In this document: one piece after another, positions 12,434-13,529 of the stretch | Position numbering within the stretch: position 1 is the stretch's first letter | Layout of the letters: the number at the start of each line of letters is the position of its first letter | Origin: Minisyncoccota bacterium | GTDB taxonomy: Bacteria > Patescibacteriota > Minisyncoccia > Phycocordibacterales > UBA6065 | Assembly (NCBI GenBank): GCA_035546035.1 | Contig: DASZXC010000008.1 | Span: 188,265-252,264 of the forward strand | Direction: 5' to 3' | Length of the DNA stretch: 64,000 nucleotides | The notes under the pieces: model-generated | The model's database searches: none | What the model saw: the letters and a program-made list of their open reading frames with translations, nothing else | What the model was told of the DNA's origin: nothing | Position numbers and translations under genes: made by a program

Positions 12434-13529
12434 TTATCGGCTTTTCCAAAACAGAAACTGATTTTTCAGATCTTCTGAGAATTCGTGCGCGTCGGCATGA
12501 GACAGAACGCCGAGATAGGACTGGAGTGACGCGGAAAGATTGTCTTCAGTCACTTCACCGCTTTGATACTGCTTCACAGTCCACTTCAACTTCCGTATCA
12601 TCCTCTTTTTCGTCTTTGTGCGAACCGCAATGCGATGCGGCAGGATGATATAGCCGAGGAAGTCGATTCCTTGACTAGATTTTCTAATGGTAACTTTCTT
12701 TGGATGCAGATTCAGCCTCAGCTTTTCCCTGAGGAAATGCTTGATTTTTGGCACGAGCGATTTCAGATAGCTGGCATCGTCTGATATGATGACAAAATCG
12801 TCCGTGTAGCGCGCATAATATTTCTCTTTCAGCTCATGCTTAACGAACTGGTCAAACTCATTCATATACACGTTAGCGAAAAGCTGGCTCGTCAGGTTGC
12901 CTATAGGTATGCCTGTTCGGCGCGAAGCGCCGAAAGTACTCTCTCTCTCTCTCTCTCTCTCTCTCTCTCTCTCTCTCGCAAGTTCCGCGAACGTAGCTCG
13001 TCACGACTTCTTCGAGGAGCCGCATCGTCTGCGGATCTTTAATTCTCTTTTTCAAAATTTCAATAAGGAAATCCTGGTCGACGCTGTCAAAGAATTTCTG
13101 TACGTCGCACTTGAGTGCATAGCACGGCCGCGTGTAGTTTTTGCTGACTTTTCTGATGGCATCACGGATATACATGACGCCTCGATGAGTTCCTTTGCCA
13201 ATACGGCAAGAGAAAGATGCGGGAATATAGACCGGCTCAAATATATAAATCAGCACTTTGAAAATCGCATGGTGGAGCACCCTGTCGTGCACCGTGGCCT
13301 TGTGGATTCGTCGAAGCTTTGGGTCATGGATCCAGAATCCTCTGTATGGCCCGTGTTTGTACGTTCCATTCTTCAAATCCCTATACAGATCAAAAATATT
13401 TTGCTCAAGATCAAGCTCGAATTCCATCACGTCGGGCTTGTTCTTCTTGTCGGATTTGAAAACTTCCCATGCGTCAAAGAGCGTCTGGGGAGAAATTATC
13501 GACCAATATAAATCTTTATATATTTTCAT
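12434..13529 (-). CDS. DGR reverse transcriptase, reading frame split by a (CT)19 simple-sequence repeat
   Basis: N-terminus (DLYWSIISPQTLFDAWEVF...GTYKHGPYRGF) resembles DGR RTs. Motifs RIHKATVHDRVLHHAIF and ALKCDVQKFFDSVD are present. After the repeat, the +1 frame continues with the DGR-specific motif 4 GIPIGNLTSQLFANVY and YxDD (YTDDFVI). ORF A is 12873..13529 and ORF B is 12434..12871. One extra AG unit would fuse them into about 365 aa. Confidence 0.8.
12939..12976. repeat. (CT)19 dinucleotide microsatellite inside the RT coding sequence (encodes ERERER... on the minus strand)
   Basis: Counted directly in the sequence. It sits at the ORF A/ORF B junction of the RT. Confidence 0.9.

Follow-up and report, generated by a model that had tools for sequence, protein, structure and literature searches.

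In a 64,000-nt stretch of DNA from a Minisyncoccota bacterium (contig DASZXC010000008.1; hereafter the window), the reverse transcriptase (RT) gene of a diversity-generating retroelement (DGR) is split by a perfect dinucleotide repeat, which reads (AG)n in the direction of the gene. The element is a complete DGR, consisting of the RT, an accessory variability determinant (Avd), a pair of template repeat (TR) and variable repeat (VR), and a target gene that carries the VR. Comparisons with relatives show that the tract is a property of a whole RT lineage, and not the single curiosity that a preliminary description of this DNA had seen in it. We consider it reasonably probable that in a DGR lineage of Patescibacteria and DPANN archaea mutagenic retrohoming is gated by the (AG)n tract, acting as a frame switch through slipped-strand mispairing. 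The on/off reading by slipped-strand mispairing, put forward in the preliminary description for the window, gains support from the conservation of the site, from differences in tract length between related loci, and from the intactness of the out-of-frame alleles.

A dinucleotide tract splits the RT gene

The RT gene of the window is made up of three parts, listed here in the direction of reading.

12978-13529, minus strand: N-terminal part of the RT, starting with the ATG at 13529 and running for 184 codons up to the tract, with fingers and motif A (KCDVQKFFDSVD)
12939-12977, minus strand: G(AG)19 tract, a perfect dinucleotide repeat with homologous pure (AG)7-35 in at least 240 loci
12434-12938, minus strand: C-terminal part of the RT, in the +1 frame, with motif B (GIPIGNLTSQLFAN), YTDD, SQGIDFLGY and the thumb

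On the forward strand the tract is a perfect (CT)19 at 12939-12976, which the minus strand reads as G(AG)19 over 12977-12939, and the 64-kb window contains no second dinucleotide run of five or more units. (AG)n is open in all three frames, each of which encodes alternating Glu and Arg, and the number of units determines the reading frame of everything downstream in the RT gene. As assembled, the open reading frame (ORF) of the N-terminal part, which matches positions 8-107 of the RVT_1 profile, enters the tract and reaches a stop 21 codons later at 12873, for a total of 218 aa. The C-terminal part matches RVT_1 positions 116-205 in the +1 frame and ends at 12434. The preliminary description, according to which the minus-strand RT is split by 19 AG units and has its later motifs in the +1 frame, is thus borne out by the sequence and by the RVT_1 matches on either side of the tract.

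The same description had predicted that gain of one unit or loss of two would give an RT of about 365 aa. When the gene was rebuilt with 0-29 units, a single RT ORF resulted when n = 2 mod 3, with a length of 365 aa for n = 20, the version for which a continuous ORF had been foreseen, and of 363 aa for n = 17. We refer to alleles with both halves in one frame as ON and to the others as OFF. The RT ORF, which in a DGR should be uninterrupted, is split at the tract in the window assembly, and one additional unit or two fewer units restore it. The window allele is OFF, one unit short of ON. A perfect repeat within an ORF, the number of whose units sets the frame, is the arrangement of a contingency locus.

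The exact N-half protein of the window RT had no match in the protein collection that was searched, and a degenerate pattern for the right flank of the locus gave zero matches among metagenome contigs, so that a second copy of the locus was not found there. The sole other contig of the same organism, a Logan contig of 1151 nt (SRR12170516) found via its exact Avd, stops 24 nt into the tract (L121, positions 1-24). Such a break is expected, because the 38-nt repeat exceeds the k-mer of the assembler, and similar breaks may hide tract loci in k=31 assemblies.

The repeat recurs at the same place in related elements

The nearest full-length relatives of the window RT stem from Patescibacteria, share 57-67% identity with it and are typically 349 aa long. 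Most aligned relatives have a short loop, SRPNLFERRG, ahead of motif B and no tract. About one in ten carries an in-frame (Glu-Arg)n-Glu-Ser insert exactly at the position of the window tract (P0078, with GVCERERERESTSGAMRQKGIPI, is an example), and some have decayed tracts that are locked in frame (P0024, P0038, P0041, P0045 and P0074). Avd relatives with at least 90% identity adjoin tract-less RTs of 349 or 340 aa.

We scanned species-representative genomes and JGI metagenomes for (AG)7 followed, after a gap of 20-50 nt, by codons for GNLTSQ, a pattern that samples tracts with n of at least 7 only. Each of the two collections contributed at least 120 loci. The preliminary description had proposed a comparison with orthologous RTs, and in these at least 240 loci the repeat is indeed found at the same position; among the matches listed, all have a pure (AG)7-35 located 14-49 nt upstream of GNLTSQ. 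The named records among the matches listed belong nearly all to Patescibacteria or to DPANN archaea (Woese-, Pace- and Nanoarchaeota). The repeat is strongly enriched at the RT site relative to its surroundings: the 240 listed loci have 240 tracts, and in the adjoining 1.45 Mb just two further dinucleotide tracts reach six units or more. A scan of the viral contigs in IMG/VR returned one match, which was not an RT, and the tract is thus not a phage feature in that collection.

The RTs that bear the tract are diverse. In the listed loci, their pairwise identity ranges from 32 to 64% with a median of 50%, and they fall into 92 clusters at 70% identity. For 153 of 161 tract-bearing RTs the nearest neighbor is tract-bearing as well. 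The flanks of the tract are unconserved apart from a weak CG just before it, and the distance to motif B varies between 14 and 49 nt. In the sequences compared, the conserved element is the repeat itself and not a peptide. As a rough guess, based on 9-12 in-frame tract alleles per 120 full-length relatives listed and on an ON share of 21% (see below), RTs with a tract make up about one third of this RT neighborhood.

Tract length differs between near-identical loci

Length polymorphism, which the preliminary description had named as a check, was found between orthologous loci only, where otherwise identical contigs differ and ON/OFF pairs are among them. In 18 pairs of loci the flanks of 420-600 nt are at least 95% identical, and 7 of these pairs differ in unit number, a value that should be read as a lower bound, as some of the pairs with the same n are probably the same data assembled twice. 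One AG unit is the sole difference between L050 (n = 8, OFF) and L197 (n = 9, ON) over 3660 nt, and the same holds for L094 (n = 12) and L227 (n = 13) over 4108 nt. The 600-nt flanks of L136 and L184 (both n = 9, OFF) are identical to those of L170 (n = 10, ON). On these comparisons, the tract is the fastest-changing site of the locus.

Two further observations concern pairs of this kind. Between L136 and L170 there are further differences within the VR and in a stretch beyond it, which lie upstream from the tract at about 1.5-1.6 kb and 2.4-2.8 kb; the VRs of L136 and L184 are identical. In L098 and L119, one AG unit is the sole difference between whole contigs of 4863 and 4861 nt. We set this pair aside as an example of an ON and an OFF allele because the N half of each is interrupted by an additional in-frame TAA/TAG. 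The stop falls where relatives have a Trp residue (KNFV*RGD) and could mean that the gene is a pseudogene, that the genetic code is an unusual one, or that both sequences share an error.

Most alleles are out of frame

The frame of the N-terminal half was assigned by a hidden Markov model of that half, and the frame of the C-terminal half was taken from the motif. Frames were callable for 209 of the loci listed. The two halves are in frame in 44 of them (21%), offset by 1, as in the window, in 91, and offset by 2 in 74. Collapsing near-identical loci leaves 170-194 lineages, 22% of which are in frame, and the in-frame share is the same in both collections. Natural in-frame alleles reach n = 25 and encode a full-length RT with an (Arg-Glu)n loop.

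Out-of-frame alleles are intact and under selection

We counted the halves of a gene as intact when the reading frame stayed open for 165 codons or more ahead of the tract and for 125 or more beyond the motif. By this measure, both halves are intact in 137 of the 140 evaluable out-of-frame loci, and in 37 of 41 in-frame loci. YxDD is retained in 98% of OFF alleles. The ratio of nonsynonymous to synonymous substitution rates (dN/dS) was calculated for pairs of loci by the method of Nei and Gojobori. Where both members of the pair are OFF, its median is 0.12 for the N half and 0.14 for the out-of-frame C half, and pairs that contain an ON allele give matching values. L002 (n = 35) and L049 (n = 17), for example, have a dS of 0.19 and a dN/dS of 0.06 in the C half. 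The low dN/dS of the C half in OFF pairs indicates that the downstream half is translated often enough for strong selection to act on it. The share of loci that have a TR/VR pair with the bias to adenines is 57% for OFF and 60% for ON, and the number of adenine mismatches is the same in both.

We therefore rejected the idea of a decaying pseudogene, as OFF alleles show neither extra disabling lesions (137 of 140 intact) nor relaxed selection (dN/dS of 0.12 and 0.14). Recent inactivation, offered in the preliminary description as an alternative, is poorly supported for the same reasons: the halves are intact, dN/dS is about 0.13, and the gene is not decayed elsewhere.

The tract maps to a loop and is often followed by a hairpin

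The best solved relative of the window RT is the Bordetella bRT (8ub7, E = 1.7e-49). It aligns in two blocks, with query residues 4-176 corresponding to bRT 5-172 and query residues 206-355 to bRT 177-319. The tract therefore lies within an insertion of about 29 aa where bRT has about 4 residues, between the helix that follows motif A and the strand of motif B. An AlphaFold model of a hypothetical (AG)20 allele has a mean pLDDT of 83, with values around 50 for residues 181-210, and shows the (Glu-Arg)n segment in helical form. The model fits a tract that would encode a tolerant surface loop.

A hairpin follows shortly after the tract in the window.

12916-12934, minus strand: GC-rich hairpin of 8 bp, UUCGGCGC-UUC-GCGCCGAA, starting 4 nt after the tract

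Folding of the 40 nt that follow the window tract gives a z of -2.85. Across loci, the shuffle z of the 40-45 nt after the tract has a mean of -0.80, compared with -0.04 in control windows from the same genes (p = 3e-11). Uninterrupted GC-rich hairpins are present in 22% of loci and 4.1% of controls, and CTTCGG follows the tract in 6.2% versus 0.6% in controls. The 42 hairpins use 36 different stem arms and frequently have UUC or UGC loops. Part of the signal is due to the higher GC content, as the minimum free energy in a GC-matched comparison is -8.8 versus -7.3 kcal/mol (p = 9e-10), and a strong hairpin is found in 20-55% of loci only. Hairpin strength is equal in ON and OFF alleles. Four tract-less relatives have no structure at the corresponding site. 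The hairpin could stimulate frameshifting or stall replication.

A second repeat type occupies the same loop

A search with the N half in a protein library of 50% representatives brought up relatives with runs of Gly in the loop, and at the DNA level these are homopolymeric G. A G12 tract (L256, 1508-1519) and a G9 tract (L257, 2052-2060) are in frame, and another G9 tract (L258, 1099-1107) is out of frame, with motif B in the wrong frame. In the representative library, several N-terminal fragments terminate at a GGG loop, with an out-of-frame motif B behind it. Compound tracts are present in two AG loci, (AG)15G9 in L059 and (AG)8G11 in L158. That two classical types of slippage-prone repeats occur at one loop points to slippage of DNA as their common property.

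Discussion

Together, our data suggest a model in which slipped-strand mispairing at replication would add or remove AG units. With a unit of 2 nt, each change by one unit would shift motif B, the catalytic YxDD and the thumb into another frame. One frame in three would yield a full-length RT with a harmless charged (Glu-Arg)n surface loop. The other two would yield a truncated N-terminal fragment, and with it no cDNA synthesis and a frozen VR; OFF alleles presumably make no active RT. Most cells would thus hold a diversified receptor frozen, while a changing minority would run mutagenic retrohoming. Switching would be reversible within lineages, and the gate would presumably be maintained by selection, for example because it restricts a costly or destabilizing mutagenesis to a subpopulation. 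We regard it as an even call whether this can be taken further, to a selected two-tier device in which a slippery tract, either (AG)n or poly-G and often combined with a hairpin, sits in a tolerant RT loop and gates the RT stochastically, as a form of bet-hedging across the whole DGR lineage.

Several findings weigh against a simple DNA switch. The in-frame share of 21% is below the one third expected for a neutral toggle (p = 1.2e-4), and in-frame alleles are rarest, at 15%, for the shortest and least mutable tracts with n = 7-9. The rarity of in-frame alleles suggests that the OFF state is cheap, and it would fit a rescue at the level of RNA or the ribosome as well. A pure DNA switch has no need of a hairpin, which is nevertheless enriched family-wide 0-5 nt downstream of the tract. 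For the organism of the window, the unit number in its own population rests on one assembly, as the other contig ends in the tract and the metagenome scan gave no matches; the reversibility of switching we infer from comparisons of loci with one another.

The hairpin and the excess of OFF alleles would be expected if the tract were a site of recoding, with ribosomes that shift by 2 nt or an RNA polymerase that stutters on (AG)n, such that every allele leaks some full-length RT and the variation in DNA length is a tolerated by-product. This idea, which we consider unlikely though not negligible, draws on the GC-rich structure after the tract, both in the window and in its family-wide enrichment, on the predominance of OFF alleles even at short tracts, and on the purifying selection of the C half in OFF alleles. 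A tandem slip by 2 nt on (AG)n would, going by the sequence, re-pair both tRNAs perfectly, and the four tract-less relatives without structure at the hairpin site speak for it, too. Recoding would, however, go with a fixed offset, and offsets of 0, 1 and 2 are found in 44, 91 and 74 loci, also among close relatives. The hairpin is strong in no more than about half of the loci even at the upper estimate, and its signal is partly one of GC content. In hairpin-stimulated transcriptional slippage the hairpin is not known to lie 3' of the slippery run, and the structure described here would be on the wrong side for that mechanism. Poly-G in the same loop points instead to repeats that slip at replication. 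A switch in the DNA and recoding at the RNA level are compatible and not mutually exclusive.

It would also be conceivable that the loop is a non-adaptive hotspot, in which a region tolerant of insertions has gained a slippery repeat that selection cannot purge; OFF copies would then be broken, the DGR mostly dispensable, and the tract without a regulatory role. We hold this to be improbable. It would agree with the 79% of alleles that are OFF, with the decayed tracts locked in frame, and with the lack of any tract in most close relatives. Yet pure tracts persist in RTs that are 32-50% identical and whose flanks are unconserved, the loop has acquired a second type of repeat, and such repeats are nearly absent from the surrounding 1.45 Mb. 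OFF alleles are moreover free of extra lesions, and a dN/dS of about 0.13 in an untranslated half requires a frequent return to the translated state. That the split is an artefact of assembly or sequencing, with 20 (or 17) units and an unbroken RT in the actual genome, is very improbable. The 38-nt repeat is longer than small k-mers, the Logan contig of the same organism breaks within the tract, and the metagenome-assembled genome, which is assigned to Candidatus Paceibacterota, is a third-party assembly, but out-of-frame alleles are equally common for tracts of 14-18 nt, which are trivially assembled, and they recur across many assemblers and studies. On these grounds we rejected assembly error as a general explanation, and the suggestion of such an error in the preliminary description finds poor support in view of the out-of-frame tracts, in about 165 loci and with as few as 7-9 units. 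There is, finally, hardly any likelihood that the two halves are made as separate polypeptides and assemble into an active RT, even though both are conserved ORFs. In the window there is no ATG, GTG or TTG from the tract to motif B, the frame of the N-terminal part reads the motif B region as HTYRQPDEPAFR, and the earliest possible restart, the GTG at 12871, is positioned past motif B. We rejected a two-polypeptide enzyme, since neither piece would carry motif B. Across OFF loci, a start codon in the interval between tract and motif B, motif codons included, is found in just 49%.

The slipped-strand switch that we favor has parallels in known contingency loci. The Helicobacter pylori outer-membrane genes oipA/hopH and hopZ carry CT/AG repeats that act in this way. 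Another CT/AG dinucleotide repeat contingency locus of H. pylori is sabA (PMC2715451). In these genes, as in the DGR, a perfect CT/AG tract lies in the coding region, a slipped-strand change in unit number moves the frame of the downstream ORF, and alleles vary between otherwise identical strains. The H. pylori tracts are close to the 5' end, in the signal-peptide region of surface proteins of a host-adapted pathogen, whereas the DGR tract lies midway through an enzyme, at a loop that separates motifs A and B. In the ON state it is translated into a (Glu-Arg)n insert that is tolerated. Its conservation spans two domains of life, and what it would control is not an antigen but the machinery of mutagenesis. 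Phasevarions, in which mod DNA methyltransferase genes have repeats inside the ORF (PMC6265453), resemble it in that an in-ORF repeat toggles an enzyme and one hypermutable site controls a downstream program of variation. Their units are tetra- or pentanucleotides and their output is epigenetic, whereas the output of the DGR is the targeted hypermutation of a ligand-binding protein.

Polymerase and transposase output is limited by programmed frameshifting in retroviral gag-pol, in IS3-family elements with A6G and a hairpin, and in dnaX. The DGR tract shares with these the slippery run, the stable hairpin within a few nucleotides, the catalytic part in another frame and the expectation of low levels of full-length enzyme. 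In programmed frameshifting, however, the offset is fixed and conserved, whereas all three offsets occur at the DGR tract among near-identical sequences, and the length of the run is variable. The DGR tract is set apart from all these systems in that it would gate a DGR RT, lies in a loop between catalytic motifs, and is conserved across Patescibacteria and DPANN. Our literature search found no repeat-based control of the RT described for any DGR, with an earlier mention in the DGR literature on the candidate phyla radiation and DPANN being possible. An early DGR survey mentions frameshifted RTs solely as copies that have been inactivated (PMC3521204).

If our reading is true, a repeat gate in the RT would offer one simple answer, both heritable and reversible, to the question of how DGRs keep their mutagenesis in check and so spare a useful variant from being overwritten at once. 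It would do so in the organisms that are richest in DGRs, and this layer of control would have escaped attention because a split RT gene is taken for a dead one. Surveys and annotations that require an intact RT ORF would miss about four fifths of the tract-bearing elements or call them inactive. For Patescibacteria and DPANN the tract would provide a clear example of phase variation, and also one of a hypermutable element under the control of another.

Other features of the retroelement and its surroundings

The remaining parts of the DGR lie on the far side of the RT start.

13530-13880, plus strand: avd (accessory variability determinant), matching PF22296 (bAvd, 2.7e-17), its ATG abutting the ATG of the RT
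13927-14041, minus strand: TR core of 115 nt with 29 adenines
14402-14516, minus strand: VR core, at the 3' end of the target gene
14393-15199, minus strand: DGR target gene, encoding 268 aa, with the VR at the C-terminus

The window RT has both the DGR-type motif B, GIPIGNLTSQ, and YTDD, in agreement with the [I/L/V]GxxxSQ and YxDD expected of a DGR. The Avd scores 79.9 bits against NF033474 (DivGenRetAVD), 0.1 under the curated cutoff of 80 bits. TR and VR differ by 17 mismatches, and 17 of 17 are at TR adenines, from which we conclude that the RT was active in the past of the lineage. The VR at 14402-14516 is the only one in the window. The target protein of 268 aa has no match in Pfam or NCBIfam. 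The element shares with the canonical DGR of Bordetella phage BPP-1 (bRT, Avd, TR and VR; 8ub7) the [I/V]GxxxSQ motif B, the Avd, the restriction of TR/VR mismatches to adenines, and the VR at the C-terminus of the target. It differs in the loop, where about 29 aa that hold the repeat stand against about 4 residues in bRT, and in the avd gene, which in the window is on the opposite strand and abuts the RT start.

The starts of RT (13529) and avd (13530), on opposite strands, abut each other also in L122-L134 and L256-L258, and a transcript that runs from the TR to the RT would be antisense to avd. Avds of at least 90% identity adjoin RTs whose identity to the window RT is only about 65%. The DNA of avd may be under a second constraint, for example as part of a DGR RNA. 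A perfect palindrome at 13882-13906 (AGAAAACCCACAT/ATGTGGGTTTTCT), between the end of the TR and the stop codon of avd, may be a candidate bidirectional terminator or an element of the DGR RNA. On the minus strand, a terminator-like hairpin of 14 bp follows the target gene at 14323-14354, and a promoter-like site precedes the TR at 14117-14145; the two suggest that the TR is transcribed separately from the target.

At 9711-11042, on the minus strand and 1.4 kb downstream of the RT, there is a gene for a large serine recombinase with Resolvase, Recombinase and zinc-ribbon domains, and given its proximity the DGR may belong to a mobile element or adjoin one. Short tandem repeats of 9 nt (TGTCTCATT, TGTAACATT) are located at 28344-28416 and 34119-34137 and recur at three places.

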